A stretch of 64,000 bases of DNA, taken from positions 72,602,001-72,666,000 of the forward strand of contig OZ360235.1 in assembly GCA_977017645.1 (NCBI GenBank), written 5' to 3'. The stretch is from Torpedo marmorata. Taxonomy: Eukaryota. Within the stretch, counting starts at the first letter, position 1; each line of letters starts with the position of its first letter. Below, piece after piece: positions 1,936 through 60,463 of the stretch. The notes under the pieces were generated by a model that searched no databases, was not told the origin of the DNA, and saw nothing but the letters and a program-made list of their open reading frames with translations. Made by a program: the position numbers and the translations under genes.

Positions 1936-2994
1936 TTTTTATTTGCTTCCTTAAAGTTGACTTCACTATTTCAGTGCAGAGCGACAACTGAAAGCCTTGT
2001 CGTCCTTTTCTCAGCATCTTGCATTTTATTTTGCTTGCCTTCCTTTGACTTTTGGGTGTCTTTTGTGCCAAAGACTCTATCCGTAGCCAAGGAGCATTTT
2101 TTACAGAGTGAGTGGAGCCATGATGGTCCACTTCTAATTTTTCTATCATTTAATATTTCTGGTGAAGCATTCAGTGTTGATAGGTTGAACCAGCAACACC
2201 AAATCATACCAAAGGTGAGTGCTTGATTTTCTAATCTAATAAAGGAGTGCATTTTACAGAGCCTTTTCATCATCTCAGGACATCCATTTTAACAGCTAAC
2301 ACTGCTCTGAAGCCTGGTCCCTGATGCAATGCATTTGTACACTGCATGTAAAATTTCCCTGCTTTGAAACATGTGCATCCTATTTGAGCACAGCAAGGTG
2401 CTCCAAGTAAGGGATGTGAATGGTTTTCTCTTGGCAAGTTCTGATCTCTGAATAATAAACTGTCAAGCAGAATTCCATTCACATCCACAGGGAAGTATTA
2501 GCATGAAATGGGTTTTTGAAGTGTCAAAGAAGGATGCAGAAATATTACTTCTCTGACAAAAGAAGTATTGCACTGCATATTATCAAGAGTCTTGAGGTTT
2601 GTTGAAAGCTGCTTGACATTTCAAAAATTGTAACCACACTAGAATTAAAATGTACAAAAATGCTTCTGAAGCTTGTGTAAAAAAAATTCATCAGTTAGTT
2701 CAGTTCCATGTTTACTCGGTGATTCTTTTCTTGAGAGTCTTTCTTGCTGCATGCACTGGCCTCCAGCTGTGTCGGGTCCACTGTAACACTCTTCAGCACA
2801 TCACTCAAGTGGGTTTTCTGCAAATGTGAATGTAGATGTTGCATAGCAACGGGCTTCCCAACTGTGAGCAGGGTCACTTCTATAATCTTGCCTTTCTCAT
2901 GTAAGATTTCCCCCATACCCCCACCCCCTCCTCCCCCACCAGGTAATATAAAGTAGTGTGGTTCTTCCAGTGATATGAATGGTATTTTGTTGAG

Positions 2995-5481
2995 AAGGAG
3001 AAGCATGGGTGATGACCCTACAGGACGGTAACCATGGCAGCGAACAAGCAAGCAGCTCAGCAGCTGAAGGACCCACACAGGCTGTGGGTGGTTGGCGACT
3101 TACGGTTGAAGGACTCACAGAGGGTGTGGCCTGCTGGCGACTGGCTCGTGGGAACCAGGTATCGGAACTGGGATTTGAGAGGGTGCTGAGGGCAAGTAGG
3201 GTTCCCAAAGGGCTTCAGGTGGTGAAGGCTTCCTGATCATGACCGAGGTTTGGATCTGGAGCTCGGGTTGCCGATGGTTTGAACAGGAGTCAGTGAGGCT
3301 ACAGAGGCTGCAGGAGCATTGGAGGCGAAGCCACGGACACTCAGTGTCTCTGTAGGGACCATCTTTTGCTTCTCTTTCTCTCAGGTGAGGCAGCAAGTTA
3401 AGAGGAAGAAGTAAGCATACATTAGATGTATGAAGCAGGAAACAGGAAGGCCTGATGAGAATTATATGGTAGCCAGGAAGGAACTTAAGAAAGGACTTAG
3501 GAGAGCTCGAAGGAGGCATGAGAAGGCCTTGGCAAGTAGGATTAAGGAGAACCCCCAAGGGGTTCTATGCGTATGTGAAGAACAGAAGGATGACGAGAAT
3601 GAAGGTGGGGCCGCTTAAGGATAAAGGAGGCAACATATACCTGAAGGCAGAGGAAGTTGGGGAGGTCTTAAATGAATACTTTGCTTCAGTATTCACCAGA
3701 GAAAAGGACCTTGATCAGGGTGAGTTCGGAATCGAACAGGCTTGTGTGCTGGATGATGTTGACATAAAGGAACAGGAAGTGTTGGATCTTCTTAAAAACA
3801 TTAAGATTGATGTCCCCAGGGCCAGATGCAATATACCCCAAGTTGCTGTGGGAAGGGAGGGAAGAGATAGCTGGTGCATTGGCTATGATCTTTGAGTCCT
3901 CCTTGGCCACAGGGGAGGTGCAGGAGGATTGGAGAATGGCAAATATGGGCTCCTTGTTTAAAAAAAGGTAATAGGGAGAATCCTGGGAATTATAGACTAG
4001 TGAGTCTTGCTTCAGTGATGTGCAAACTATTGGAGAGGATTCTTAAGGATTGGATTTTCGAGCACTTGGAGAAGTACAGTGTACCCAAGGATAGTCAGCA
4101 TGGCTTTGTGAAGGGAAGGTCATGTCTCATGAACCTAATTGATTTTTTTGAGGAGGTAACAAAAGAAATTGATGAAGGTAGGGAGGTTAATGTGGTGTAT
4201 ATGAATTTTAGTAAGGCATTTGACAAGGTCCCCCATGAGAGACTTGTTCAGAAAGTAATGAGGCATGGGATCCACGGAACCTTGGCTGTATGGATTTAAA
4301 AATTGGTTTGAGTGTAGAAAGCAGAGGGTAGTAGTGGACGGAAAGCGTTCTGCCTGGAGTTTCAGTGACTAGTGGAGTTCCGCAGGGATCTGTTCTGAGA
4401 CCCCTGCTCTTTGTGAAGAAGAGGAAGGATGGGCCAGTAAGTTTGCGGATGATACGAAGGTTGGAGGAGTTGTGGATAATGCTGAAGGTTGTCGTAGGTA
4501 ACAAAAGGATACAGAGAAGATGCAGAGTTGGGTGGAAAAGTGGCAGATGGAGTTCAATCCGGATAAATGTGAGGTAATGCATTTTGGAAGGTCAAACCTG
4601 AAGGCTGAGTACAGGGTTAATGGTCGGATGCTTAACAGAGTGCAGGAACAGAGGGACATTGAGATCCAAATCCATAGCTCTCTCAAGGTTGCTGCGCAGG
4701 TTGATAAGGCAGTTAAGAAGGCATATGATATGCTGGCCTTCATTGGTCGGGGAATTGAGTTCAAGAGTCGAGAGGTCATGTTGCAACTCTACAAATCTCT
4801 GGTGAGACCACACTTGGAATATTGTGTTCAGTTCTGGTCACCTCATTATAGGTGTGCAAGCTATGGCGAGGATTCAGAGGAGATTTACCAGCATGTTGCC
4901 TGGAATGGAAAATGAGTCTTATGAGGCAAGGTTAGCAGAGCTGGGACTTTTTCTCTTTGGAGTGAAGAAAGATGAGAGGAGACTTAATAGAGGTCTACAA
5001 GATTCTGAGAGGCATAGATAAGGTGGACAGCCAGCGCCTGTTTCCCAGGGCAGGAATAGCAAACACCAGGGAACATCTCTACAAAGTGAAGGGAAGAAAG
5101 TTTAGGGGAGACATCAGGGGTGAGTTTTTTTTACACAGAGAGTTGTGGGTGCCTGGAATGCCTTGCCAGGGATGGTGGTGGAGGCTGAAACATTAGGGGC
5201 ATTTAAGAGACTCTTAGATAGGCACATGGATGAAAGAAAGATAGAGGGTTACGAGGTAGGAAGGATTTATTTATTTTTTTTGGTAGGAATATATAGGTTG
5301 GCACAACATCGAGGGCTGAAGGGCCTGTACTCTGCTGTAATGTTCTATTGTTAGGGGTGCTGGCCAATGCTCTTGGCGACTCTGTTTGCCTTATGGCGGA
5401 CAAATTTTGAAGTATATCATGTATATTACATTTTTATGTATTATTATGTGAAAATAAAAGGAGCCTTAAAAAGGAACCTTG
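2995..5481 (+). mobile_element. Unclassified SINE-like retroposon (body ~2995-3385, tail ~5349-5481) split by a CR1 insertion
   Basis: The tail TAGGGGTGCTGGCC...GGCGACTCTGTTTGCCTTATGGCGGACAAA...GGAACCTT is homologous to the tails at 14885-15006 and 52700-52824. A GC-richer non-coding body precedes the CR1. The 5' boundary is uncertain. Confidence 0.5.
3386..5348 (+). mobile_element. CR1-clade LINE, 5'-truncated, decayed ORF2 (RT)
   Basis: ORF fragments ENPGNYRLVSL, SQHGFVKGRSC, FSKAFDKVPH, SGVPQGSVL, LYKSLVRPHLEYCVQFWSPH, MRGDLIEVYKI. The 3' end GGGCCTGTACTCTGCTGTAATGTTCTAT is CR1-like. Confidence 0.92.
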
Positions 5482-6504: not shown

Positions 6505-7690
6505 TTTATGCTCTTTATCAACGACAGTTCGGCATTCAACACCATCATCCCCTCAAAATTGATCAGCAGACTCCAAGACCTGGGACTCAACACCCTACTG
6601 TGTAATTGGATCCTGGATTTCCTCACCTCCAGACCACAATCATTGAGGATTTGTAAGAACATCTCCACAATCTCCATCAGTACCAGAGCACCACAGGGCT
6701 GCGTTCTTCGCCTCCTGCTCTACTCGCTATACACCTATGACTGTGTGGTACGGTACATCAACAGCACCATCTACAAATTCGCTGACGATACCACGGTAGT
6801 GGGTTGTATATAATGAGGCGATGAGTCAGCATACAGGAGGGATATTGAAAACTTGGCTGAATGGAGCGCCAACAACAATCTCGCACTCAATGTCACCAAA
6901 TCCAAGGAGCTGATTGTGGACTTCAGGAAGGGAAAACCAGAGGTGTACGATCCAGTGATCATTGGGGGATCAGAGGTGGAGAGGGTGAGCAAATTTAAGT
7001 TCTTGGGAGTCACTATCTTGGAGGATTTTCCTGGACCAAACACACTAATGGCATCGTGAAGAAAGCACGTCAGCCCCTCTACTTCCTCAGGAGTTTGCGG
7101 AGGTTTGGTATGACATCGGAAACCCTGGCAAACTTCTACAGATGTGTGAAGATTGTGCTGACCGGCTGCATCACGTTCTGGTATGGGGACACCAATACCC
7201 CTGAGCGGAAAGCCCTGCAAATGTAGTGGACACAGCCCAGGACATCACAGGCAAACCCATCCCCACCATCGAGAACATCTACAGGGAACGCTGCCGTTGG
7301 AGAGCAGCAGCAATCATCAAGGATCCACACCACGCAGCACACGCTCTGTTCTCGCTGCTACCATCAGGAAAGAGGTATAGGTGCCACAAGACTCGCACCA
7401 CCATGTTCAGGAACATCTGCTACCCCTCCACCATCAGACTCCTCAACAACAAACTCAATCAGGGACTCATTTAAGGACTCTTACTTGTGCACATTATTGA
7501 TTTTCTTTTGTTCTCTCTGTATTGCACAGTCAGTTTGTTTACATTTCTTTATTTGGTTACATGTGTATGTTGAGTACAGTTTTTTATGCACTCCTAATAA
7601 GTGGTAATTCTGCCTTGCCCACTGGAAAAAGAATCTCAGGGTTTTATGTGATGTCATGTATGTACTCTGGCAATAAATCTGAAATCTGAA
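6505..7690 (+). mobile_element. Rex1/Babar-type LINE, 5'-truncated
   Basis: [44 protein letters not shown]. Ends in AATAAATCTGAAATCTGAA. Confidence 0.9.
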
Positions 7691-14494: not shown

Positions 14495-14884
14495 GTAAGT
14501 TATTGCATTTCCCTGCATGTATTAATGTGTGAGGTAGAATCAATGTCATGAAATACAGTGATGAATAATTCCATTTCAATGATAACTTCATATCCACCTT
14601 GCCCACAGACTGGGATTCCATATGTTAACAGAATGATAGGATGAGGAGCAATTCGCATCCAACATTCCTCCGATTTTTGTTGGAGTCGCATTATTTTGCA
14701 AAATACCAGGCAGGCATCTTGACCTCATTTTGGACAAAGTGTCTACTGACACTACAGAGTTAGTCAGAGTTATACAGGTTGAATACCCCTTATCCGAAAT
14801 GCCTGGGACCAGAAGTGTTTCGGATTTTGGATTTTTTCGGATTTTGAAACACCATTTAAAAAATCAACTCATTCACTCAGACTT

Positions 14885-15086
14885 AAAGGTAAAAGTTCCA
14901 TTATTGTCACGTAATACTACATTTAGAATGTAACATACATGAAATTCTTTATCTTTGTCTACCGTAAGGAAGACAGAGAGTCGCTACTTTGTCCAGCACC
15001 CCTCACAAAAATGAGGCCCCAGCGAGGAACAAACTCGCAACCCCTGGTTTACAAGACCAGTGCTCTAACCACTGAGCTATGGAGCC
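14885..15086 (-). mobile_element. SINE or chimeric retrocopy: complete tRNA-Thr(TGT) head plus shared ~125-nt tail
   Basis: tRNA head, then CATTTTT, then tail GTGAGGGGTGCTGGACAAAGTAGCGACTCTCTGTCT...GTGACAATAATGGAACTTTTACCTTT. Inserted within the Tigger MITE. Confidence 0.88.
15014..15086 (-). pseudogene. tRNA-Thr(TGT) pseudogene / SINE head, 73 nt
   Basis: GGCTCCATAGCTCAGTGGTTAGAGCACTGGTCTTGTAAACCAGGGGTTGCGAGTTTGTTCCTCGCTGGGGCCT folds as a full cloverleaf with anticodon arm CTGGT-CT TGT AA-ACCAG. The T-loop is mutated (TTTGTTC instead of TTCGATC). Confidence 0.88.
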
Positions 15087-15599
15087 AGTGCATTCAAGAT
15101 ACATGCATTCACATTACAATACAAATATTTACATATGCATCTACACTAAAATGCACTACTTATGTCCGCTATGTCCCGTTCTCCGATTTCTGAACTCTAT
15201 TACGTATGACGTATTACCTCAAGGAACCACGGACGAAAAAGTTTCGGATTTTGGATAATTTCGGATTTCAGGTATTCGGATAAGGGGAATTTAACCTGTA
15301 ATGTGGTTGGGAACGCAAGGTGGGATTCGCAAGAGGCTGTTTCACACCGGATAAAGCTGAAGTTCTCAGCAAATCAAAACTGTTTAAATTAGCACTATCC
15401 CAAGCTGCCTATGGAGGAAGAAAATTCCTCCATCATCTTCTTTCTGGATATTGGGAAGCAGAGCAGGAATGGGTAACAAGATAAGAACAATGCTTAGATG
15501 CACCAAAATTCTTACTTGATGCAGCCCTACAGGTGCAGAAGATGCACCATCTGCAATAGTACACCTTAAATTAGCACAATACAGTATGCCAAGACTGAA

Positions 15600-20973: not shown

Positions 20974-22862
20974 CCGTATATTTCGGCGTATAAGTCGACT
21001 CGTGGATAAGTCGACCCCCCTTTTTCAGCCTCATTTTAATGGTTTTATTATATATCCGGCGTATAAGTCGACCCCCAAAAATCGCGATGCCTGAGATGCT
21101 GAGCGTTGACCGGCGTATAAGTCGACCCCCAAAAATCGCGATGATTGAGCTGCTGGGCGTTGACCGGCGTATAGGTCGACCCACAACGATCGCGATGATT
21201 GAGCTGCTGGATGTTGACCGGCGTGTAGGTCGACCCACAACGATCGTGCTGATTGAGCTGCTGGGCGTTGGTTGGAGGTGATTGTTATCATGGAGGCTCA
21301 ATTGAAACGACGAAAGTATGAGGCGAGTTTTAAATTAAAAGTGATAGAAATGGCCAAGAAAACCAACAACTGTGCTGCTGCAAGAAAATTTGATATATAT
21401 GAGAAGTTGGTAAGAGATTGGAGGAGGAAAGAAGATACTTTAAGAAAAATACCAAAAAGGCAATGTTCGATGAGAAGAGGAATCACTCGTTGGCCAGAGT
21501 TGGAAAATCATGTCGCAGCATGGGTACGTGAACAGAGGCAAGATTGCTACATAGTCACCCGAAATAAAATAAGAACATTTGCACTGAAGTGGGCAAAGTC
21601 GCACCCGGAACTCAGTAATGATTTTGAAGCTACAGTAGGCTGGTGCAACCGTTTCATGAACAGGAAAAATCTGGTATTACGACAAAAAACTAAAATTGCT
21701 CAGAAACTACCAAAAGATCTTGATCATAAAGTTGTAAGTTTTCACCAGTTTATTTTACGTAACCGGCAGAAACACAAGTTTGCATTGGCAAATATTGGAA
21801 ACATGGACGAAACCTCCATGAATTTTGACATGATACGCAATAGAACAGTGGAATGGAAAGGTGTGAAAACTGTGCAAACCAGGAGTACAGGCCATGAAAG
21901 GACCAGGTTTACTGTGGTGTTATCGTGCACGGCCGACGGGACAAAGTTAAGACCCATGGTAATCTTCAAACGTAAATTTAAACCTAAAATAAAATACCCT
22001 GCGGGTATTTTTGTACATTTTCATGAAAAAGGATGGATGGATGAAAATGGTGTAAAACTATGGATAGACAATGTGTGGAACAGGCGGCCAGGCAGTTTAC
22101 GCAAGGAACGGAGTTTGCTGGTCTGGGATATGTTTCATAGCCACTTAATTGAGAACACTAAAAGTAGATAGCACAACATAATACTTACATGGCGGTTATC
22201 CCAGGTGGTTTGACGTCTATATTGCAACTTCTCGATGTCTGCTTGGACAAGCCATTCAAAGACCATGTGCGTGAAGAGTGGAATACATGGATGTCGAGTG
22301 CAGAAAAATCATTTACAAAAGGCGGGGCAATGCCTGCTTCATCGCTTGATGTGCTGTGTGACTTCGTGCTCAAGGCATGGGACAAAGTGAAAGTAGAGAC
22401 TGTAATAAAATCGTTTAAAAAGTGCGGTATCTCTTGTGCAATTGATGGTACGGAAGATGATTTATTGTGGGACACTGACGACGAAGCTCAAGCCGCCTCA
22501 TCAGATACAGACTGGGACCCGTACGATGACTGTTTAAACAGTGAAACCCCAGATGTGCTTGCCGAGATCTTTGCCTCAGACGATGACAGCAAAAGTGATT
22601 TTGAAGGGTTCTAAATGTCTTGTTGTTTTCAATAAAAATGTCAATGAAAATTTGTTGCAGTCGGGTTTTTTTTTTGTTTTTCAAGGGTTGACTTATACGC
22701 CGAATCGTGTTTTCAAGGGTCGACTTATACGCCGAATTGGCGTGGAGTGGTTTTTGAGCTGATTTTAAGGTCTCAAAAGTATATCCGGCGTATAAGTCGA
22801 CCCCAGTTTTTTGAGAGATTTTTGAGGGTTTCAAGACTCGACTTATACGCCGAAATATACGG
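20974..22862 (+). mobile_element. Full-length pogo-superfamily (POGK/Passer-like) DNA transposon, 1889 bp
   Basis: TA TSD. TIR CCGTATATTTCGGCGTATAAGTCGA at both ends. Subterminal GGCGTATAAGTCGACC repeats. Transposase inside. Confidence 0.93.
21290..22614 (+). pseudogene. pogo DDD transposase (Brinker-like HTH, CENP-B HTH, DDE_1) with a single frameshift
   Basis: MEAQLKRRKYEASFKLKVI; GWCNRFM; catalytic NMDETSM, LLVWDMF, LQLLDVC; acidic tail ending DFEGF. The two ORFs join if one base is restored near 22169 (AGA T[T]A GCA). Confidence 0.88.
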
Positions 22863-32189: not shown

Positions 32190-33550
<1,361 letters not shown>

Positions 33551-39854: not shown

Positions 39855-42800
39855 AATCATCAACCAACTAGCCGGAGTGTTCACGGACATTTTCAACCTC
39901 TCATTGCGGCAGTCAGAGGTTCCCACCTGCTTCAAAAGGGCATCAATCACCCCGGTACCCAAGAAGAGTAGTGTGGGCTGCCTCAACGACTACTGCCCAG
40001 TAGCACTGACTTCTACTGTGATGAAATGCTTTGAGAGGCTGGTCATGGCCAGAATTAACACATACCTAAGCAAAGATCTGGACCCACTGCAATTCGCCTA
40101 TCGCCACAATCGCTCCACAGCAGATGCAATATCGCTGGCTCTCCACTCAGCTCTGGATCACCTCGAAAACAGCAATTCATACATACGGCTGGTCTTCATC
40201 GACTACAGCTCAGCCTTCAATACCATTATTCCCTCAGTGCTGGTCAAGAAGCTACAAACTCTAGGCCTCTGTACCCCACTCTGCAACTGGATCCTTGACT
40301 TTCTCATCGGAAGACCACAGTCAGTACGAATTGGAAACAACGTCTCCTCCTCACTGATTATCAACACAGGCGCACCCCAAGGATGCGTGCTTAGTCCACT
40401 GCTCTACTCGTTATACACCCATGACTGTGTGGCCAGGCACAATTCCAATGCCATCTACAAGTTTGCCGATGACACCACAGTTGTCGGCAGAATCACAAAC
40501 GGCAATGAGGAAGCGTACAGGAGGGAGATAGATCAGCTCGTTGAATGGTGTAATGGCAACAACCTTGAGCTCAACGTCAGCAAAACCAAGGAGATGATTG
40601 TGGACTTCAGGAGGAAGTCAGGGGAACACGATCCAGTCCTCATCGAGGGCTCAGTCATGGAGAGGGTCAAGAACGTCAAATTCCTGGGTGTCAACATCTC
40701 CGAGGATCTCTCCTGGAGCATCTACGTTGATGCAATCACAAAGAAGGCTCGTCAGCGGCTATACTTTGTGAGGTGTCTGCGGAGATTCGGTATGTCACCA
40801 AAGACTCTCGTAAACTTCTACAGGTGTACCGTGGAGAGCATTCTGGCTGGTTGCATCACTGCCTGGTATGGAGGCGCCAACTCCCAGGACAAGTGTAAAC
40901 TCCAGTGGGTTGTTAACTCGGCCTGTGACATCACAGGCACCAAACTTCACTCCATCGAGGACATCTACATGAGGCGGTGTCTTAAAAAAGCAGCCTCTAT
41001 CCTCAAAGACCCCCACCACCCAAGCCATGCCCTCTTCACTCTGCTTCCATCGGGAAAAAGGTACAGGAGCCTAAAGATGAGCACTCAGAGCTGGTAGATT
41101 TGATCGAAAGAGATTTGATAAAATTTGGCAACGATGGATAGTAAAAAAATAAATGTAGTAAGTTTTAATATAAATGGGCTCAACAATCCTATTAAAAGAA
41201 AGAGAACTTTAGCGTATATTAAAAAGTTGAATGTAGATATAGCTTTTCTACAAGAGACGCATTTGGTAGATTCGGAACACCAAAAATTAAAAAGAGAATG
41301 GGTTGGTCAAGTGGTGGCTTCTTCATTTAATTCTAAAGCAAGAGGGGTAGGTATATTAATTAATAAAAAGTTACCTTTAAATATACAATCGATAGTTATA
41401 GATGTGGCAGGTAGATATGTTATTGTTCATTGTCAGATATATTCAGAATTTTGGACACTTATGAATCTGTATGTTCCAAATGTAGATGATGAACAGTTTA
41501 TTCAAGATTCTTTTTTACACTTGTCAGAAGCTAATGAGAATATTTTAGTTGGTGGAGATTTCAACTGTTGTTTAGATCCAATAATGGATAAAACTTCAAG
41601 ATCACTTGTTAAAACTAAAATTGCTAAAAAAGTTCTTACTTTGATGAAAGATTTAAATTTAATAGATATTTGGAGGAAACTGAATCCTAGAGAAAAAGAT
41701 TATTTGTTTTATTCTTTTAGACATGATTCATATTCTAGAATAGATTTAATTTTGTTATCTTCACAGGTTCAAGATAGAATAACGCAAGCAATTTGTAAAG
41801 CGAGAATAATTTCTGATCATTCACCTTTACTAATATCTTGTATAATTCCGGAAAAAGAAAAAACTGTACATAGCTGGAGATTTAATTCTTCTTTATTAAA
41901 AAGAAAAGATTTTTGTGATTATATGAGAAGGGAAATTCAGGAATTTTTACAAATAAATTCCAATTCTACTAATAATAAATTTATTATATGGGAAGCCTTA
42001 AAAGCTTATTTAAGAGGTCAGATAAGAAGTTATTCAGCAAAAATTAAGAAGGATTATCTTAGAGAGGTTAATAATTTAGAGAAGGAAATTGAGTGTTTGG
42101 AAAAAGACTTACAATAAAATAGATCAATTCAAAAAAGGAATAATTTAGTTGGGAAAAAATTACATTATAATTTATTACAAACATATAAAATGGAAAAATT
42201 AATTGAAAGAACTAAACAAAGGTATTATGAATTAGGGGAAAGAGCACATAAAGTCTTGGCGTGGCAATTAAAAAAAATCAAACTTCTAGAACTATAAATG
42301 CTATTAAGAAAAAGAATTCTAGGGAAATATAAACCTTGAGAAATAAATGATTCTTTTAAGGATTATTATTTAAATTTATATAAATCTCAGATTGATCAAG
42401 ATGATTCTAAAATTAATAGATTTTTATCTTAGATTATATTACCTAAATTAAATATTCAAAGTAGAGAAGCTTTAGATTTACCTTTCTCAATGAGGGAAGT
42501 TAATGAAGTTCTTACTTCTTTAACGAGTGGTAAATCTCCAGGTGATGATGGATTTCCAGCAGAATTTTATAAAGGGTTTAAAGACTTATTGATACCTCCG
42601 TATATGGATGTATTAAATCAAATTACGGAAACCCATTCACTACCGGATACATTTTTAAATGCAATAATTACAGTTATACCAAAAAAAGATAGAGATGTAT
42701 TGAAAACTGAATCATATAGACCTATCTCATTGTTAAATGTAGATTACAAGATAATGGCAAAAATTTTAGCAAATAGGATGGCTAATTATTTACCAGATTT

Positions 42801-45405
42801 AATTCATGTAGACCAAGCTGGTTTTATTAAGAATAGATATTCAAAAGATAATATAGCTAGATTAATTAGCTTAATTAATTTACAAAAAAAGAAAGAAGAT
42901 TTACCATTAGTATTAACGTTAGATGCCGAAAAGGCTTTTGATAGACTAGAGTGGAATTTTTAATTTAAGGTGTTGGAGAAATTTGGTTTTGGAATTACGT
43001 TTATTAATTGGATTAAAACTATATATAAAGAACCATCTGCTAAAGTGGTTACAAATGGACAGATTTCTTCAAGATTTCCTTTGACTTGATCTACTAGACA
43101 AGGATGTCCTTTGTCACCAGCATTATTTATTTTGGCGATAGAACCTTTGGCAGAATTAGTTAGAAAAGATCCTAAAATAGTTGGTATTAAAGTTGGAACG
43201 GAAGAACATAAAATTAGTTTATTTGCAGATGATGTATTGATATATATGACAAAATCTATTACATCTTTAGTACAACTGTCTGCGTTATTGAGAGAATATG
43301 GGGAAATATCTGGATATAAAATTAATTCTGATAAAAGTGAAATTATGGCATTATCACAAGGGGATTATAGTAAATGTAAAGAAATTACACAATTTAAATG
43401 GGCAAAGGAAGGAATTAAATATTTGGGAATAAGGATTGACACAAAATTGGCTAATTTATATAAATTAAATTATTTACCATTATTTGTGAAAATAAAAAAG
43501 GATTTAGAAAATTGGAAAGATTTACCTATAACTTTAATGGAAGAGTAAATTGTATTAAAATGAATGTTTTTCTAAGAATTCAATATCTTTTTCAATCAAT
43601 TCCTTATGAAATTCCTCAAAAATTTTTCAAAGATTTAAATTCAATTATTAGAAACTTTTTATGGAAAGGAAAGTTAGCAAGAGTAGGTATGGAAAAATTA
43701 AGTTGGAATTATGAAATGGGTGGTTTACAACTTCCTAATTTCCAAAATTATTATAAAGCAGCTCAATTAAAATTTGTGAATGAATTTTTTGATTCAACTA
43801 AATCTTCTGCTGGATTAAAATAGAACAAAATAATATAGGAGAAGATTCCAAAGAAGAAGTTATTTATAAATGGGATTCTAAATTAATATCAACAAGAAAG
43901 AAAATTTCTCCTATTCTTAAACATTTGTTAGAAATATGGAATAAGACGGATAAGGACATAGGAGGAAAAGGATTGATTTCTTTAAGGATACCTTTATATC
44001 AAAATGGACTTATTCCATTTACTATTAATAATCAATTATTTAGAATTTGGTTTCAAAAAGGAATTAAGAAAATAAATGATTGTTTTGAAGCTGGGAAATT
44101 TATTACTTTTCAAAGAATGAAAGATAAATTTAATATATTAGATAATACACTTTTTGCTTATTATCAAATTAGAGCTTTTTTGATTGAGAAATTAGGTTAT
44201 GCTTTGACTTTACCAAGACAGAATGAATTAGAATTATTAGTTACTAAAGGAGATGTAAACAAATTTATTTCTCAAATGTATAAATTGTTTCAGAGGAAAA
44301 TTCCTAAAGTAGGAATTCATAAATCAAGATTAAAATGGGAATTAGATTTGAACGTAACAATAGATGAAAATCATTGGAAAGAATTATGTAAATTAAGTAT
44401 GACGAAGATTATTAATGTTAGATATAGATTAGTACAATACAATTTTTTTCATCAATTATATTTAACACCTAAAAAATTAAAGAAATTTAACCCGACATTA
44501 TCAGGTTTATGTTTCAGATGTAATAAAGAGGAAGGTTCTTTTGTACATTCTACATGGTTTTGTCCAAAAGTCTACGATTTTTGGTTGAAAGTTAAAATTT
44601 TTTTAGATAAAGTATTTAAGATTATATTCCCAATCCTATGATATTTTTGTTTGGAGATATTAAAAAATTTAGTATTAAGATGAAATTAAATATGTATCAA
44701 ATAGAATTTTTGCGAATTGCTTTAGCTGTTTCAAAGAAATGCATTGCTATTACTTGGAAATCTGATGTTGATTTAGGTTTAGAAAGATGGCATGCAGAAC
44801 TTCGTTCATGTATACCACTTGAAAAAATTACTTATAACTTACGGAATAAATATCATTTCTTTTTAAAAATATGGAGCCCTTATATGAAAGCTGTTGGATT
44901 AAGGATTTGAAGATCTCTGGACATTGGATCTACTGGCTACCTAACCTCCATAATAGAATTAGTTTATAGATGTATTTATTAGATTGACATTCTCCTTACT
45001 TTATCTTTTTCTTCTCTATTTCTTTCTTTTTTTAAAATATTTTATTAGATTAGTGGGGTTGGGAGGGTTGGGGAGGGGAGGGTGGGAGGGGGGGTGAAAA
45101 TGTATCACAAGTATTTTTGATAATTTTATATTTTATTCTATGTATTTTGTGATTTAAAATTTAAAATAAAATATTTAAAAAAAGATGAGCACTCAACGGC
45201 ACAAGGACAGCTTCTTCCCCGCTGCCATCAGATTCCTGAATAATCAATGAACCAAAGACTTTTCGTGCACTATTGTTTATAATTTTTTATAGTAATGTCG
45301 TTAGATAGTTAATATGAATGTTAATTGCACTATGATGCTGCCGCAAAACATCGAATTTCATGACTTGTTCATGACAATAAATTCTGATTCTGATTCTGAT
45401 TCTGA
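39855..45405 (+). mobile_element. Young Rex1/Babar-type LINE (RT segment 39855-41087, 3' end 45196-45405) interrupted by L1
   Basis: Uninterrupted ~410-aa RT segment ([39 protein letters not shown]). Resumes after the L1 with RHKDSFFPAAIRFLN and a (TTCTGA)n tail. Confidence 0.93.
41088..45180 (+). mobile_element. L1 LINE, 5'-truncated just upstream of ORF2, decayed
   Basis: 15-bp TSD AAAGATGAGCACTCA (41073-87, 45181-95). APE endonuclease (SFNINGL, LQETH, GGDFN, SRID, SDHSP) and RT (PGDDGF, LDAEKAFDR, RQGCPLSP, LFADD), zinc knuckle, G-rich UTR. Confidence 0.95.
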
Positions 45406-51202: not shown

Positions 51203-53096
51203 AAAAAAATACAAATGCTGGAGAAACTCAGCAGGTCAAACAGTGTCTTTTATGTAGCAAAGGTAGAAATACATAACCGACATTTCAGGCTTGAGCCCTT
51301 CATCAAAGTATGAGAAAATGCCGGCAGGCGTCCGAACAGAAGAGTGAGGGGGGAAGGGGGGGGTGGCAAAGGCAGGAGATGATAAGTGGAGAAAGGAGGG
51401 AGGGGACAGCAGCAAAGAGGGGGAGGAGGGATAGCTGGGTGGGTGGAAAAAAACAGGAAGGACAGGTGAGGGGGGAGGGGAAGGAAAAGACAAGCAGGTT
51501 CAGTGGAAAGCAGAAAAGTCAATGTTAATGCCATCGGGCTGGAGAGTGCCAAGACAGAAAATGAGATGTTGTTCCTCCAATTTGCGGGTAGTCTGGGTGG
51601 GATAGTACATAAGGCCATGGACAGACATGTGAGTGTGGGAGTGTGACTCGGAATTGAAATGGCTGGCTACTGGGAGGTCGCTGTTGTTGCGGACGGAGAG
51701 GAGGTGCTCAGCAAAGCGTTCTCCCAATCTACGACCGGTCTCTCCGATGTAGAGAAAGCCACAAAGGGAGCACCGGATGCAGTAAATAAGTTCTCTGGAT
51801 GTACAAGTGAAGTGTAGTTTCACCTGAAAGGCCTGAATGGGGCCCCGGACTGTGGTGAGGGGGGAGGTGTAGGCACAGGTGTTGCACCTCCTGCGGGCAC
51901 AGGGGAAGGAGCCGGGAGTGCGATGGTTGGGGAGGGATGAGTGCACGAGGGAATCGCAGAAGGAGCGGTCCCTGCGGAAGGTAGAGGGGAGGAGAAGGAA
52001 AAATGTGTCTGGTAGTGGGATCCTGTAGTAAGTGCCGGAATGTTTGTTGCGTCTGGGGGCAGAGGGGGCCAGGGCAGATGAGCGGGAAATAGAGGAGATG
52101 CGGGTAAGGGCTGAGTTGATGGTGGTGGAGGGGAAGCCATGTTTGTGGAAGAAGGCAGACATTTCAGAAGATCTGGACTGGAAGACTTCATCTTGGGAAC
52201 AGATGCGGCGGAGACGGAGAAATTGAGAGAAGGGGATGGAATCTTTGCAGGGGACAGGGTGTGAGGAAGTGTAGTCCAGATAGTTGTGGGAGTTGGAGGG
52301 TTTGTAGTAAATGTCAGTGGAAAGCTTGTCTCCCGAGATGGAGACAGAGAGATCCAGGAAGGGGAGAATGTTATCGGAGATGGACCAGGTGAGTTTGAGA
52401 TCGGGGTGGAAGTTGGATGCGAAGTGGATGAAGTTGACAAGCTCATCGCGGGTGCATGAGGCAGCCCCAATGTAGTTGTCGATATAACGGAGGAAGAGAT
52501 GAGGGGTCTTGCTTGTGTAGGCTTGCAGCATGAATTGCTCCACAAAGCCCACAAACAGGCAGGCGTAGCTGGGACCCATGCGGGTACCCATGGCTACTCG
52601 TTTGATTTGGAGGAATTGGGATGAGTTAAAGGAGAAGTTATTGAGAGTGAGGACAAGTTCTGCCAGGCGGAGGAGGGTGGTGATAGAGGGTGACTGGTTA
52701 AAGGTAAAGGTTCCATTATTGTCACGTAATACTACATTTACAATGTAAGATACATGAAATTATTTAATTTTTGTCTACCGTAAGGCAGACAGAGAGTCGC
52801 TACTTTGTCAGGCGCCCCTCACAGAAACCTACAGCACCTGGTGTTCCTTGGTGGTCTCCCCTCCAAGTACTGACCAGTCCTGTGCCTGCTTAGCTTCTGA
52901 GATCAGACAATCCCAGTCATATTCAGGCTATTGGTGCTGGTTGGGTCTTTGGTCCAGGAAGAAGCGAAGTGCTTTCAGACCTTCTGAGTGGGGGATAGAT
53001 GTATAAAGGGATTGGACATCCATGGTGAAGATGATGCAGTCCGGTTCAGGGAATCTGAAGTCATTGAGGAGATGGAGGGCATGTGAGGTGTTGTGG
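51203..53096 (-). mobile_element. Penelope-like retroelement (RT plus GIY-YIG endonuclease), 5'-truncated
   Basis: 12-bp TSD ATGTAGTTTGGT (51191-202, 53097-108). MDVQSLYTSIP, GVAMGTRMGPSYA, FLRYIDN, LPFLDL; CxxxxCxxC; LIYCIRC..YIGETGRRLGERFAEH; GINIDF. Hammerhead-like motif at ~51273-51312. Confidence 0.93.
52700..52936 (-). mobile_element. 5S rRNA-headed SINE (SINE3-type) with the shared ~125-nt tail
   Basis: 6-bp TSD CTGGTT (52694-99, 52937-42). Head 52825-52936 GTCTGATCTCAGAAGCTAAGCAGG...TGGTCAGTACTTGGAGGGGAGACCACC..GGAACACCAGGTGCTGTAGGTTT is 5S-derived. Removing it restores the PLE frame DQRPNQSPSIT. Confidence 0.9.
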
Positions 53097-53585
53097 ATGT
53101 AGTTTGGTTCTCTGTGGTTGCCAAGAAAATTCTCAACAACATCTTTAAATGCCTTCCATGAATGCCCAGACCTAAGACAACATTTTCATAGCACCTGCAC
53201 TGAGTGCATGCCCAGGCATGCTTGGACTGACCAAAACAGCTTGCTTTGTGGGCAATATACCAGTAGACTTAAAATGTGACAGAAAATCACAAAAATAGGT
53301 TATATCTAAAAAAGCGTAACGTGATAGGAAAATTTTGTGATTTTTGTGATCAGAAGCCCAAAATCCATAAAATACACCCAAAAGTGTTCAGGAAGCAAAA
53401 TCTTCATTGTCCAGTGTAATCTGACCCATCTGCCAGATATCATATGTAAAGTAGATAAAACCCTTGAAAAACACAATGGGATCATAAGGAGAATCAGAAA
53501 TGTACCCTGCAGTGATTCCAAGAAAGACAAGTTTCTTGCTTATCTTTCCTAATAAAGTTAGGAATCGTATATTCAGGTGCTTGAA

Positions 53586-56500
53586 TTTTAAAAAAAAATA
53601 TTTTATTTAAAATTTTTAAATCACAAAATACATAAGGTAAAATATAAAATTATCAAAATACATGTGATACATTTTCACCCTCCCTCCCCTCCCTAACCCT
53701 CCCACCCCTTCTAAACTACTAAAATTTTAAAAAAATAAAAAAAAGAAAGAAAGAAAAAGATAGAATAAGGAGAATGTCAATCTAAAAAATATATCTATAA
53801 CTAATTTTATTATGGAGGATAGGTTCGCCAGTCAGATCCGATGTCCAGAGATCTTCAAATTCTTAAACCAACAACCTCCATATATGGGCTCCAAATTTTC
53901 AAAAAAAAAGATATTTATTACGTAAATTATAAGTAATTTTTTCAAGTGGAATACATGATCGAAGTTCTGCATGCCATCTTTCTAACCCTAAATCTACGTC
54001 GGATTTCCAAGTAATAGCAATACATTTCTTAGATACCGCTAAAGCAATTCGCAGAAATTCTATTTGATACATATTTAATTTCATCTTAATACTAACTCTT
54101 TTAATATCTCCAAACAGAAATATCATAGGGTTCATTGGGAATGTAGTTTTTAATACTTTATCTAAAAAAATTTAACTTTCAACCAAAAATCATAAACTTT
54201 TGGACAAAACCATGTAGAATGTACAAAAGAACCTTCCTCTCTATTACATCTAAAACATAAGCCTGATAATGTCGCGTTAAATTTCTTTAACTTTTTAGGT
54301 GTTAAATATAATTGATGAAAAAAGTTATATTGAACTAATCTATATCTAACATTAATAATCTACGTCATACTTAGTTTACATAATTCTTTCCAGTGATCTT
54401 CATCTATTGTTACATTTAAATCTAATTCCCACTTCAATCTTGAATTATGAATTCCTACTTTAGGAGTTTTTCTCTGAAACAGTCTATACATTTGAGAAAT
54501 AAATTTATTTACATCTCCATTAGTAACTAATAATTCTAATTCACTCTGTCTTGGTATAGTCAGACTATAGCCTAATTTCCCAACCAAAAATGCTTTAATT
54601 TGATAATAAGCAAAAAGTGTATTATCCAATTTATCTTTCATTCTTTGAAAAGTAATACATTTCCCAGCTTCAAAACAATCATTTATTTTCTTACTTCCAT
54701 TTTGAAACCAAATTTTAAATAATTGATTATTAACAGTAAATGGAATGAGTTCATTTTGATATAGAGGCATTTTTGGTGAAATCAATCCTTTTCCTCCTAT
54801 TTCCTTATCCACTCTATTCCATATTTCTAGCAAATGTTTAAAAATAGGAGAATTCTTCCTTCTTGTTAATATTAATTTAGAATTCCATTTATAAATAACT
54901 TCTTCTTTGGAATCTTCTCCTATATTATTTAATTCTATTCTAATCTAAGCGGAAGACTTAGTTAAATCAAAAAGTTCATTAACAAATTTTAGTTGAGCAG
55001 CTTTATAATAATTTTGAAAATTAGGAAGTTGTAAACCACCCATTTCATAATTCCAAGTTAATTTCTCTATACCTACTCTAGCCAACTTTTCTTTCCACAA
55101 AAACTTCCTAATAATTACGTTTAAATCTTTAAAAAAAATTTGAGGAATTTCATAAGGAATTGATTGAAAGAGATATTGAATTCTTGGAAAAACATTCATT
55201 TTAATACAATTTGCCCTTCCCATTAAAATTATAGGTGAATCCTTCCAACTCTCTAAATCTTTTTTAATTTTCATAAATAATGATAAATAATTTAATTTAT
55301 ACAAATTAACTAATTTTGTATCAGTCTTTATTCCCAAATATTTAATTCCTTCTTTTGACCATTTAAATTGTGTAATTTCTTTACATTTACAATAATCCCC
55401 TTGCGTTAATGCCATAATTTCACTTTTATCAGAATTAATCTTATAACCAGATATTTCCCCGTATTCTCTCAATAAAGCAGTCAATTGTATTAAAGAAGTA
55501 ATAGGTTTTGTCATATATATCAATACATCGTCTGCAAATAAACTCATTTTATGTTCTTCCCTTCCAACTTTAATACCTACAATCTTAACATCTTGTCTAA
55601 TTAATTCTGCCAAAGGTTCTATCGCTAAAGTAAACAATGCTGGTGATCAAGGACATCCTTGTCTAGTTGACCGAGTCAAAGGGAATCTTGAAGAAATTTG
55701 TTCATTTGTAACCACTTTAGCAGATGGTTCTTTATATATAGTTTTAATCCAGTTAATAAATGTAATTCCAAAACCAAATTTCTCCAATACCTTAAATAAA
55801 AAATTCCACTCCAATCTATCAAAAGCCTTTTCAGCATCTAACGTTAATACTAATGCTAAATCATCCTTCTTTTTATGCACATTAATTAAACTAATTAATC
55901 TAGCTATGTTATCCTTTGAATATCTATTTTTAATAAAACCAGCTTGATCTACATGGATTAAATCTGGTAGATAATTAGCCACTCTATTTGCTAAAATTTT
56001 TGCCATTATCTTATAATCCACATTTAACAATGAAATTGGTCTATATGATTCTGTTTTCAACACATCTCTATCTTTCTTAGGTATAACTGTAATTATTGCA
56101 TTTGAAAATGTATCCGGTAACAAATGAGTTTCTGTAATTTGTTTCAACACATCCATATATGGAGGTATCAATAAATCTTTAAACTCCTTATAAAATTCTG
56201 ATGGAAAACCATCTTCCCCTGGAGATTTACCACTCGTTAAAGAAGTAAGAACCTCATTAACTTCCCTCATTGAGAAAGGCTAGTCCAAAAATTCTTTACT
56301 TTGAGTATTTAATCTAGGTAACTTAATTTTAGATAAAAATCTATTAATTTTAGAATCATCTTGATCAATCTGAGATTTATATAAATTCAAATAATAATCT
56401 TTAAAAGAATCATTTATTTCTCGAGGTTTATACGTTATTTTCTTAGAATTCTTTTTTATAGCATTTATAGTTCTAGAAGTTTGATCTTTCTTTAACTGCC

Positions 56501-58554
56501 ACGCCAACACTTTATGTGCTCTTTCTCCCAATTCATAATATCTTTGTTTAGTTCTTTCAATTAATTTTTCCATTTTATATGTTTGTAACAAATTATAATG
56601 CAATTATTTTCCAACTAAATTATTCCTTTTTTCTTCTGATCTCTTTTTTTGCAAATCCTTTTCCAAACATTCAATCTCCCTCTCCAAATTATCCACCTCT
56701 CGAAGATAATCCTTCTTAATTTTGGCTGAAAAACTTATTATTTGACATCTTAAATAAGCCTTTAAAGTTTCCCAAATAATAAATTTATTATCAGTCGAAT
56801 TAGAATTTATTTGTAAAAATTCCTGAATTTCCCTTATATAATCACAAAAATCCTTTCTTTTTAATAAAGAAGAATTAAATCTCCACCTATATATAGTTTT
56901 TTCTTTTTCCGGAATTATACATGACATTAATAAAGGTGAATGATCAGAAATCATTCTCGCTTTATAAGATGCTTGTGTTATTCTATCTTGAACTTGTGAA
57001 GACAATAAAAACAAATCTATCCGATAATATCAATCATGTCTAAAAGAGTAAAAAGAATAATCTTTTTCTCTAGGATTCAATTTTCTCCAAATATCTATTA
57101 AATTTAAGTCTTTCATCAAAGTAAGAAATCTTTTAGCAGTTTTAGATTTAGCAACTGATCTTGATGTTTTATCCATTATCGGATCTAAACAACAATTAAA
57201 ATCCCCACCAATTAAAATATTATCATTAGCTTCTGACAAATGCAAAAAAGAATCTTGAATAAATTGTTCATCATCCGCATTTGGTACATATATATTCATA
57301 AGAGTCCAAAATTCCGAATATATCTGACAATGTATTAAAACATATCTACCTACCACATCTATCACCACAGATTGTATTTTAAAAGGTAACTTTTTATTTA
57401 CTAATATGGCTACTCCTCTTGCTTTAGAATTAAATGAAGAAGCAACCACTTGACCAACCCATTCTCTTTTTAACTTCTGATGTTCCGAATCTGTCAAGTG
57501 TATCTCTTGTAAAAAAGCTATATCTACATTTAACTTTTTAATATGCGCTAAAGTTCTCTTCCTTTTAATCGGGTTATTTAGCCCGATTATATTAATACTT
57601 ACTACATTTATTGTTTTACTATCCATCATTACTAAATTTTATTAAATCTCTCTCCATCAAACCTACCAGCACCTTCCTCCAGAATCGTAATCTATTTGAC
57701 ATCTCCTTAAAAAGAAAAAAAAAGAAAACAAGAAAATAGGATGGATACAAAACCCCAATGAATACAATACTGGTGAAATTACCCCAGTATTACCCCCCTC
57801 CATTACTCGAGGAGTGGCCCTCGCCACTAAGGTGGTATGTGGCTAGGAAGGAGAACCAAAAAGTCCACCCCCCCCAACAGATTTTACACAGCATTTATTA
57901 TCATAACTTCATTTAGCTTCTTCAAAGTCCTTATAAACTTGATTTTCATCAATCCCGACCTCGACATCCTCCTCTTTTCTTGAAGTGCTTGGCAAAGAAA
58001 ATTGCGACGGTGAAATCTCTTGAACTTGGTGATGATCCATCAGATCTTGATCTTTCTTCAAATAAGGAAGAGAATTTGCATGTTGGAACGCTTGTTGGCA
58101 GTCCGTAAAAAAAAGAGATTGATTTTCTTCAGACTGAACCTTCAAAACTGCAGGATATCTAAAAGAAAACTTATATCCCTTATTCCAAAAAATCGCTTTT
58201 GCTGGGTTAAATTCTTTTTGTCTTTTAACAATAGCTGAACTCAAATCAGGATAAAAGAAAACTCTGCTTCCCTTAACCATCAGTGGAGTCTTATAAGTTT
58301 TAGCATTTTGGATAGCTGCTTTCAATATTTTCTCTTTGTCCGAATATCGAAGACATTTAACCAAAACTGATCGTGGTCTCTGATCCGCATACTGATTCCG
58401 TCTTCCAATTCTATGCGCTCTCTCTAACTCCAAATTATCTAAACCCAGAACTTCTAAAATCCATTTCTGAAAAAATTCAGTCGTATCGTAACTTTCAAAA
58501 TTTTCAGGTAGTCCCACAATTTTAATATTATTCCTCCGGCTTTGATTTTCCAAT
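53586..58554 (-). mobile_element. L1 LINE with decayed ORF2 and ORF1 C-terminal part, interrupted by the Gypsy element
   Basis: ORF1 LENQSRRNNIKIVGLPE, LERAHR, FFYPDLS, RYPA (57909-58553). EN/RT fragments 53856-57629. G-rich UTR (C-rich on plus, ~53677-53710). Confidence 0.95.
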
Positions 58555-60331
58555 TGTTATGGACCATGACTGACCATTTGGACTGCGAACGGTCAGCAGG
58601 AAGGCTGAAGTCTTTTGGAGTACACACTGGGACCAGGTACTGAAAGAGTTAACTTGCCCAGGACTTGGCGTACCCAGAGAGAGAGAGAGAGAGCAGAAAG
58701 AAACAGGTTGTGGAAAAGATACTTTGTTGCACTTTTGCAAAAGCAGGTACAGACCTCTGCAAAAAGCAGGCAGTTTGAAGTTGCAAAGGCTAGAGAACAC
58801 AGCAAAATCCAGGCTTGTGCATCCCAGAGAAAAACGCTGGGAGAATAGCACATGGCTTCCTGTCTCAGCAAAATCCTGAGTTAAAAGCAACTTTTGTGGA
58901 GAACAGGCGTGAGATCAGCGAGACCAGCTGTGAGATCCAAGTACACGCCTCAATCAGTGGTATACTGATTTGGAGTCGCAATCCTCGTGAATCTCTACCA
59001 AAAGGGAAAGTCATCAGAGAAGAAAAAAACAAGCCAAGTATTCGTAAGCATAATGTTATGGACCATGACTGACCATTTGGACTGCGGACGGTTAGCAGGA
59101 AGGATGAATTCTTTTGGAGTATACACTGGGGCCAGGTACTGAAAGAGTTAACTTCCCCAGCTACTTGGTGTACCCAGACAAGATACATTGTTGCACACTT
59201 CTGGTGTACCCAGACAGAGAGAGACCAGAGAGAGACAGAGACAGGCTGAACAAGATACATTTGTTTCACTTCTGCAAAAAGCAGGGGCAGATCTCTGCAA
59301 AGCAGACACAGTTGTGAGTTGCAAGGCTACAGAACACAGAAAGTATCCAGGTTTGTGTGCAGTCAGAGAAAATCTGGCAAAATAGCACATGGCCTCCTGT
59401 CTCAGTGAAAAATTCTGAGAAAAAGCTATTTCTGTGGAGAACAGGCGTGAGATCAGCGAGACTAGCTGTGAGATTCAAGCATACGCCTAAATCAGTGGTA
59501 TACTGATCTGGAACTTGCAATCCTTATGAACCTACAAGAAGGGGACGTCATCAGAGAAGAAAACAAGTATTTGTAAGCATAATCAGTCATTGTCTCTCTC
59601 CAACGTTCATTCAGAAGTACTTCTACCAGACCCAGAGCTGAAGTGAAGCCTGAACTTAGAGAGTGAATCTTGTGGACTGTTTATCTTTTTTTTTGACTGA
59701 CTTGTTTTTTTTATGACTGACCTGGGGTTTTTGGGGAAAGTTTTTCCATTTTTTTTACATAAGGGTTGGGCACAGACTGTAATGGTCTGGGCTTTACACA
59801 CACACACATACACCTTTTAGATAAGAATAGAGTTTATAGACGTTTATAGTGGGGTTAATTGGTGTGAAATTATATGTTTACTTGTGTTTAATAAATAATA
59901 ATTTCAATTTTACCCCTTTTGCATTGCGTCTTCTGTCGTTGCTGGTTTGAATTTGTAACAATAAACAGTCATTGTCTCTCTCCAACGTTCATTGAAAAGT
60001 CCTTCTACTAGCACACAGAGCTGAATTTGGAACCTGAACTTAGAGAGTGAATTTTTGTGGACTGTATTATTTTTTTTTGACTGACTTGTTTTTATGACTG
60101 ACCTGGGGTTTTTGGAGAAAGTTTTTCCATTTTTACATGAGGGTTGGGCACAGACTGTAATGGTCTGGGCTTTACACACACACACACCTTTTAGATAAGA
60201 ATAGTGTTTATAGACGTTTATAGTGGGGTTAATTGTGAAATTATATGTTTAATTGTCTTTAATAAATATAAATTTCAATTTTACCCCTTTTGCATTGCGT
60301 CTTCTGTCGTTGCTGGTTTGATTTTGTAACA
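58555..60331 (+). repeat. 5' LTR (58555-59053 plus 59965-60331) split by a nested solo LTR
   Basis: TG...CA termini. Sequence resumes colinearly after the nested copy. Confidence 0.88.
59054..59960 (+). mobile_element. Solo LTR (907 bp) of a sister subfamily nested in the 5' LTR
   Basis: TGTTATGG...TTTGTAACA flanked by 4-bp TSD ATAA (59050-53, 59961-64). Confidence 0.88.
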
Positions 60332-60359: not shown

Positions 60360-60463
60360 TCAAAATCCATCTTGGTAATTGAAGGAATCCTAGTTTGGTT
60401 TAAGACATTCCTTTTGTAAAGCTAATTAAAAGCTAGTGTGTGTGTAACGAAAAACCAGCAACA

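Follow-up and report, generated by a model that had tools for sequence, protein, structure and literature searches.

Two young SINE families, one headed by tRNA-Thr and one by 5S rRNA, on a common tail

Two SINE copies in the window and their hosts

The sequence analysed is a stretch of 64 kb (hereafter the window) from a genome of 6.2 Gb. The repeats in it resemble those of cartilaginous fishes. Two short elements lie on its minus strand. The first consists of a head derived from tRNA-Thr(TGT) (15014-15086; 65 bits, with the full tRNA-Thr fold), a junction at 15008-15013 that reads CATTTT in this copy and CATTTC or CACCTC in its family, and a tail of the tRNA-family type (14885-15007), which carries the diagnostic TCTTCC and ends in TGACAATAA and ACCTTT-type repeats. 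The second carries a main-subfamily head derived from 5S rRNA (52825-52939; 5S-like match at 52826-52941, 44 bits) and a tail of the 5S-family type (52700-52824) with TCTGCC, CAAAAATT and three predicted hairpins. The original prediction had placed near-identical tails behind the two heads, joined at the same tail position, and both points hold: the identity between 14885-15007 and 52700-52823 is 91.9% across 124 nt (E 6e-47), with the tails beginning at the identical base. The tRNA-Thr(TGT) head was recovered as described; the head described as 5S rRNA is indeed 5S-like, but it is not intact, agreeing with the cellular gene at 97 of 120 positions and missing the first 4 nt. The tRNA copy matches its family consensus at 191 of 196 positions and the 5S copy at 225 of 235.

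The 5S copy splits an element that is separate from the SINE and that we take to be Penelope-like (51500-53100, minus strand), with an open frame and a weak GIY-YIG match (E 0.003, below the Pfam cut-off). The motif AACCAG at 52694-52699 (minus strand) forms the 3' member of a duplication or overlap of 6 nt, with the 5' member at 52937-52942, and contigs of three out of four public runs contain empty-site joints from which 52694-52936 is missing and in which 6 letters can be assigned to either flank. Of 29 copies compared, 24 had a flank match of at least 5 nt; among shuffled pairs it was 468 of 812, and target-site duplications directly next to the copies were not consistent. The tRNA-headed copy is nested in a short element with inverted ends (14775-15325), by its look presumably a Tigger/pogo-type MITE, and a pogo-like transposase frame lies at 21257-22171. 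The window also holds an open frame of 367 codons (32190-33293, minus strand), which includes hydrophobic stretches and resembles a cellular gene for a membrane protein, an LTR element with gag and pol frames, presumably Gypsy-like (60437-63375, plus strand), and two long LINE copies that we assume to be L1/Tx1-like (41090-45176 and 53596-58556).

Two established families

Exact junctions of a 5S head with the tail number 17,381 genome-wide and those of a tRNA-Thr head with the tail 1,507, both being lower bounds on family size, while reversed-pattern controls gave 0. The matches of both families are scattered over many contigs, and the consensus cores measure 235 nt (5S) and 196 nt (tRNA). 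For 30 + 30 copies taken in genome order, non-CpG divergence from the consensus is 1.6% (5S) and 2.0% (tRNA) over the whole element, and 1.7% and 1.5%, respectively, over the tail. Four SINE copies, each 5S-headed, were present in 400 kb of unselected tiles. Neither window element is a one-off chimera; each is an ordinary member of its own abundant and young SINE family. The modular tail serving parallel tRNA-headed and 5S-headed families that had been proposed is supported by these junction counts; the families that the tail was thought perhaps to be founding are already established, and the tRNA-headed copy is no singleton with a random junction, the identical junction having been found 1,507 times.

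In a tail-anchored census scored by eye, whose pattern under-counts full-length 5S copies, the first 100 matches listed comprised 72 with a 5S head, 23 with a tRNA-Thr head, 5 without a head and 0 of any other kind. A pattern excluding both heads, which would let through about a fifth of other heads, gave 174 matches; the 100 listed were indel variants of both heads, truncations with unrelated flanks and tandem repeats of the tail start, and no third head (U6, 7SL or another tRNA) recurred among them. Grouped by head type, as had been suggested, the matches listed show tRNA-Thr and 5S and no other recurring type. Repeated capture of different Pol III transcripts had been expected from the two window copies. 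Instead two heads alone were seen among the matches listed. Throughout its family each differs from the cellular gene by changes that the gene lacks, and the simplest reading is therefore one capture per head. As a separate observation, tandem arrays of 21-nt units taken from the tail start, a minisatellite derived from the SINE, lie at G000:C50:7190374-7190798 and C47:6636604.

The heads and the cellular genes

Three tRNA-Thr(TGT) genes matched the search pattern, and the closest one found (L132) is identical to the head consensus at 71 of 73 positions, leaving 2 differences; one family-wide change falls in the T-loop/B box. A T precedes the mature 5' end in this gene and in 14 of the 19 full-length tRNA-headed copies, and the SINE junction CATTT agrees with the gene's trailer TATTT at 4 of 5 nt. 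These likenesses fit capture of an unprocessed tRNA, although the match is short, and the CA at the junction could instead be a remnant of CCA.

The 5S head has drifted much further. Its differences from the tandem 5S gene (97 identical of 120 aligned positions, the first 4 nt missing) are unevenly spread, with 13 in positions 5-36 (32 nt) and 9 in positions 37-120 (84 nt); with the promoter boxes at their usual positions for 5S genes, the promoter half is better conserved than the part upstream of it. A single 5S gene array was seen (47 scored matches), a tandem rDNA array of units about 3.2 kb long at G000:C25:86.2-86.6 Mb (ten loci). The 5' end of the 5S SINE, ACAGCACC, is the exact complement of its own 5S 3' end, GGTGCTGT; since both differ from the gene, this terminal helix looks maintained. 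The 8-mer was found in 14 of 30 copies compared.

The source of the tail

The closest relatives of the tail are copies of an older, abundant, non-coding element of about 860 nt (61% GC), which has several subfamilies and the fixed start AAAATGGCGGCG, and which ends in a homologue of the tail (its last ~120 nt) and AACCTTG, AATCTTG or ATCTG repeats. We call it the donor element. Its body is represented in the window at 2990-3380 (plus strand) and the 3' end of the family nearest the SINE tail at 5349-5470 (plus strand; 75% identical, match 5348-5457), with about 2 kb, ending in a CR1-like LINE, between the two; copies were found at eight further loci. A 'CR1 plus tail' family, which window positions 5345-5480 might have represented, was discarded, the other 29 loci having the non-autonomous element upstream. 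In a midpoint-rooted tree of 48 rows, the SINE tails form one clade (99/99) adjoining donor subgroup B (88/87), and both have a common deletion relative to the donor element; within this clade the two SINE families separate with modest support (81/76 and 85/73).

The donor consensus contains a 244-codon open frame, a length reached by 0 of 300 shuffles, and in one real copy either strand carries long frames; two frames that were scanned had no Pfam match. The donor body matches none of the LINEs at hand, and no long element with a SINE-type tail appeared among the 100 listed of 205 matches, the best identity among 20 loci being 97/122. The donor element and the LINE family that we label R2 begin alike, with AAAAATGGCG, beyond which no 5' homology was found against 30 R2 loci or a small number of further LINE 5' regions. 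A bipartite make-up of the kind treated in PMC5786205, in which a single LINE supplies both ends, is a possibility for the donor element, whose 5' part has the opening motif alone in common with R2. The tail folds into three hairpins (z -2.9 for the 5S copy; z -1.6, weakly better than shuffles, for the tRNA copy). Pairing in the central hairpin is 84% across subfamilies, with no covariation (0 double changes). Copies of the SINEs and of the donor element are nested or adjacent at several places, five of which were recorded (among them G000:C40:144321488).

Rex1/Babar-like LINEs as candidate mobilisers

The end of the tail had been likened to those of the Rex1/Babar LINEs in the window, and the layout agrees: a stem-loop, AAAGAAT, TGACAATAA and a short repeat are common to the tail and to the end of R2, with weak sequence similarity. 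R2, whose 3' part occupies 7223-7690 (plus strand), would on this layout be the best candidate for a relative of the mobiliser. We presume these LINEs to be Rex1/Babar from their known features together with PF00078 and PF09004 in the window copy, and not from a reference tree. The LINE RSg-1, which comes up again below, is likewise classed with Rex1/Babar.

Among 55 LINE 3' ends linked to reverse transcriptase sequence, the R2 ends (17 of them) scored best, with z 7.0 against donor subgroup C. Against the SINE tail they reached z 3.5, and the LINE family found most often (ATTCTG) z 0.3. A partner LINE would be of similar age and have the same terminal repeat. R2 is 8.6% diverged, against about 1.5% for the SINEs, and its terminal repeat differs, neither it nor the ATTCTG family ending in (ACCTTT)n. 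The closest relatives of the tail are non-autonomous, and the Rex1/Babar LINEs of the window are at most candidates for its partner. An autonomous LINE with the same 3' end was sought by stem-loop, among the 55 ends and by terminal repeat, and none came close: no recurring LINE body preceded the tail stem-loop in the 100 listed of 196 matches, and in 0.97 Mb enriched for SINE loci no LINE ended in AATAA..(ACCTTT)n, all 48 of 48 such ends belonging to SINEs. One and the same R2 fragment, flanks included, appears on 13 small contigs, which suggests a large repeated or collapsed segment.

Junctions and Pol III terminators

Both heads had been said to meet the tail at their Pol III oligo-T end. 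For 5S this is so in position, the junction (GGTTTC) falling at the 3' end of 5S RNA with three Ts kept. It is not so for the tRNA head: the trailer of tRNA gene L132 reads TATTTATTTTT, which puts the junction before the T5 terminator. The junction CATTTTT is likewise peculiar to the window copy, where a private C>T at 15008 produced the five-T run. As this run is a likely Pol III stop, the window tRNA copy is likely dead.

Pol III terminates at about four Ts in vertebrates. Runs of at least four Ts are absent from both family consensus sequences, and they occur in 34 of 40 donor tails against 0 of 32 5S tails and 1 of 26 tRNA tails. On sequence grounds there is thus a clear loss of oligo-T upon the move to a Pol III head (34/40 against 1/58 SINE tails), and with a three-T junction and no T4 run in the tail, Pol III would be expected to read from the head through the tail.

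Order of events

In a sample of 60 copies the tails differ at three diagnostic sites, which are nearly fixed by head. A rare 5S subfamily, of which 9 copies were found, does not follow this division. Its head is nearer to the gene (98 against 94 of 117), and its tails have the tRNA-family states TCTTCC (7/9) and CAAAGTT (6/9) along with the donor-like GTGG (6/9). A tRNA-headed subfamily with 112 matches, scored by eye, has the GTGG-type tail in about 80 of the 100 listed and TCTGCC in 4, so that its tail is mostly that of the rare 5S subfamily. The far greater drift of the 5S head and the tails of this rare subfamily make it simplest to place the 5S SINE first, with one replacement of the head in a side lineage. 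Under either head, however, the main subfamily carries GTAG, and a history with a single swap would have to include one parallel change or a later conversion.

In organism C (runs X6 and X10) the 5S-headed form mostly has donor-like tail states, including TCTGCC, as judged from summed contig depths, which are a rough guide. Eight contigs of run X10 from this organism pass from the junction into tRNA-Thr sequence; one loose end in such run contigs is the sole hint that the tRNA-headed family occurs in other organisms.

Exchange between the two families does not seem to have ended with the swap. Six 5S heads stand on a tRNA-type tail (2 archaic, 3 clearly of the main type), and 7 of 29 tRNA heads are followed by the 5S-type A-run, 5 of them by all three 5S marks; one tRNA-headed mosaic retains just 10 nt of its head. 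These mosaics point to a recurring exchange between the families at a low rate. Exchange at the RNA level, by template switching, and at the DNA level, by recombination, look the same in sequence.

The reading that we favour, and consider probable, is that two established SINE families share one tail and that the tRNA-Thr family arose once, when a 5S SINE exchanged its head for a tRNA-Thr transcript. As a first step, the terminal ~120 nt of a long non-autonomous retroelement, whose end is Rex1/Babar-like, would have become fused to a 5S RNA or gene. The tail lacking T4 and the junction having three Ts, the internal promoter could then drive Pol III read-through, and a Rex1/Babar-type reverse transcriptase may have bound the tail and begun target-primed reverse transcription at the ACCTTT repeats. 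While copying a member of the minor 5S subfamily, the enzyme would have jumped at the common TTT onto an unprocessed tRNA-Thr with its trailer, giving rise to the second family. Both families, to judge from their sequences, then multiplied about simultaneously, leaving rare mosaics of one head on the other tail.

A swap in the same direction could instead have taken place in DNA, through recombination or conversion between a 5S SINE and a tRNA-Thr gene, or through a 5'-truncated SINE landing in the gene's trailer. The common TTT would serve as microhomology, copies truncated at the junction or close to it are no rarity (the 5 headless ones among the 100 census matches listed), and such an alternative is named for PittSINE in the part of PMC5729268 available. 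The gene-like leader and trailer bases retained by the tRNA head agree with it as well, but do not favour it, since an unprocessed tRNA has both. For a DNA-level swap, however, the insertion or crossover must have hit the end of the gene to within a few bases, and no intact flank of the tRNA gene lies upstream of SINE copies beyond 1-3 nt; we regard it as unlikely.

Less likely still is the reverse order, with a tRNA-headed SINE first and a 5S head replacing its tRNA head. The tRNA-family tail does retain the donor-like GACTCT and AAAGTT that the main 5S subfamily has lost, and early back-swaps could account for the archaic 5S copies. Against this order, the 5S head lies much further from its own gene than the tRNA head does, and the 5S-headed form of organism C has mostly donor-like tail states, TCTGCC included.

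The model of the original prediction, in which different Pol III RNAs are joined time and again, at their oligo-U ends, to a free tail in the manner of U6/L1, now appears very improbable and has largely been refuted. U6/L1 chimeric retrogenes join a Pol III RNA to a LINE-type 3' part in independent, one-off insertions. The identical junction position for both heads and the 5S junction at the RNA 3' end are what such captures would give, and the mosaics would fit switching between templates. Here, though, the heads belong to amplifying families with their own diagnostic bases, and independent events with heads identical to the cellular RNA were not what was found: the heads carry family-wide changes absent from the genes, no other head was seen in the first 100 census matches listed or recurred among the 100 listed of the 174 exclusion matches, and the oligo-T is private to the window copy. 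Chance, in the form of a truncated tail beside a tRNA pseudogene or of two unrelated joinings of head and tail, has no point in its favour and is negligible in view of the 1,507 identical junctions and of a single tail clade on a long branch with a common deletion.

Beyond the head swap, we tentatively suggest a three-tier chain of parasites, which we think possible rather than probable. Rex1/Babar LINEs would support the long non-coding element; its 3' end would have been taken up by a 5S promoter, lost its Pol III terminators and been passed on to a tRNA promoter, with the intermediate subfamily persisting and the SINEs still trading heads by template switching. Were this chain real, the steps in the birth of a SINE would become directly testable.

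Comparison with known systems

Measured by the sequence criteria of SINEBase, as set out in the available part of PMC3531059, both families are SINEs. They are interspersed and shorter than 1 kb (235 and 196 nt), exceed 100 copies (17,381 and 1,507), have at least 60% identity to a 5S RNA or tRNA over at least 60 nt (97/120 and 71/73), and are not RNA pseudogenes, their copies having common changes absent from the cellular gene. The 5S family has the 5S head with conserved promoter half of SINE3 (9 against 13 differences), and the tRNA family the tRNA head with A and B boxes of SINE2, in a full tRNA-Thr fold.

The occurrence of tRNA and 5S heads on one tail is not new, as such pairs are in print. 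Common 3' sequences are described, in the portions of the sources available, for CoeSINE4 (tRNA) and CoeSINE5 (5S) of coelacanth and for HaSE1 and HaSE3 of Helicoverpa (PMC5786205), and for Ped-2 (tRNA) and Ped-1 (5S) of springhare (PMC3747384). Like the elements studied here, these are tRNA-headed and 5S-headed pairs on a common 3' part, but their common parts derive from RTE-clade LINEs, whereas the present tail is Rex1/Babar-like and has a long non-coding element as nearest relative. A parallel in fish is offered by OS-SINE1 (5S) and by SlmI and HpaI (tRNA) of salmonids, all paired with the LINE RSg-1 in the part of PMC3747384 available and thus combining 5S and tRNA heads with one LINE-type tail; OS-SINE1 and HpaI are listed there with Deu and CORE bodies, whereas the present elements consist of head and tail alone.

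Replacement of a head has a precedent in passerine birds, where PittSINE carries a new head on the older TguSINE1, template switching has been proposed and diagnostic tail bases show a single SINE ancestor (PMC5729268, as far as available). In the birds one tRNA head took the place of another on a CR1 tail; in the present case a tRNA head would have replaced 5S, with a surviving intermediate and later mosaics. Module exchange has also been proposed for hagfish SINEs (PMC7245038, in part). The SINE3 class is described in the accessible text of PMC7245038 and PMC10886601 as having a 5S head with the promoter half better conserved than the upstream part, and vertebrate SINE3 families are moved by CR1-clade LINEs according to the former; the 5S head here is alike, but the tail is Rex1/Babar-like. 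Other SINEs are described in what is available of PMC5499810 and PMC10946416. A long, multi-subfamily, non-coding element of the present kind is not among the non-autonomous LINE derivatives in the available part of PMC5786205.

At the level of titles and abstracts, no description of this tRNA-Thr/5S pair was found in the literature, a comparison that does not extend to repeat libraries; both families may already be deposited in Repbase, Dfam or SINEBase or in the supplements of papers. They stand apart from the published pairs in that their tail ends like Rex1/Babar, its donor is long and non-coding, and an intermediate survives. The understanding of SINEs is unchanged, since the general phenomenon is known. 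The value of the present case is that of a clean and young example, in which the source tRNA gene, the 5S array, the donor of the tail, the intermediate subfamily and the mosaics are all found in one genome; it adds a 5S SINE that is likely Rex1/Babar-dependent and a source of recent insertion markers for the lineage.
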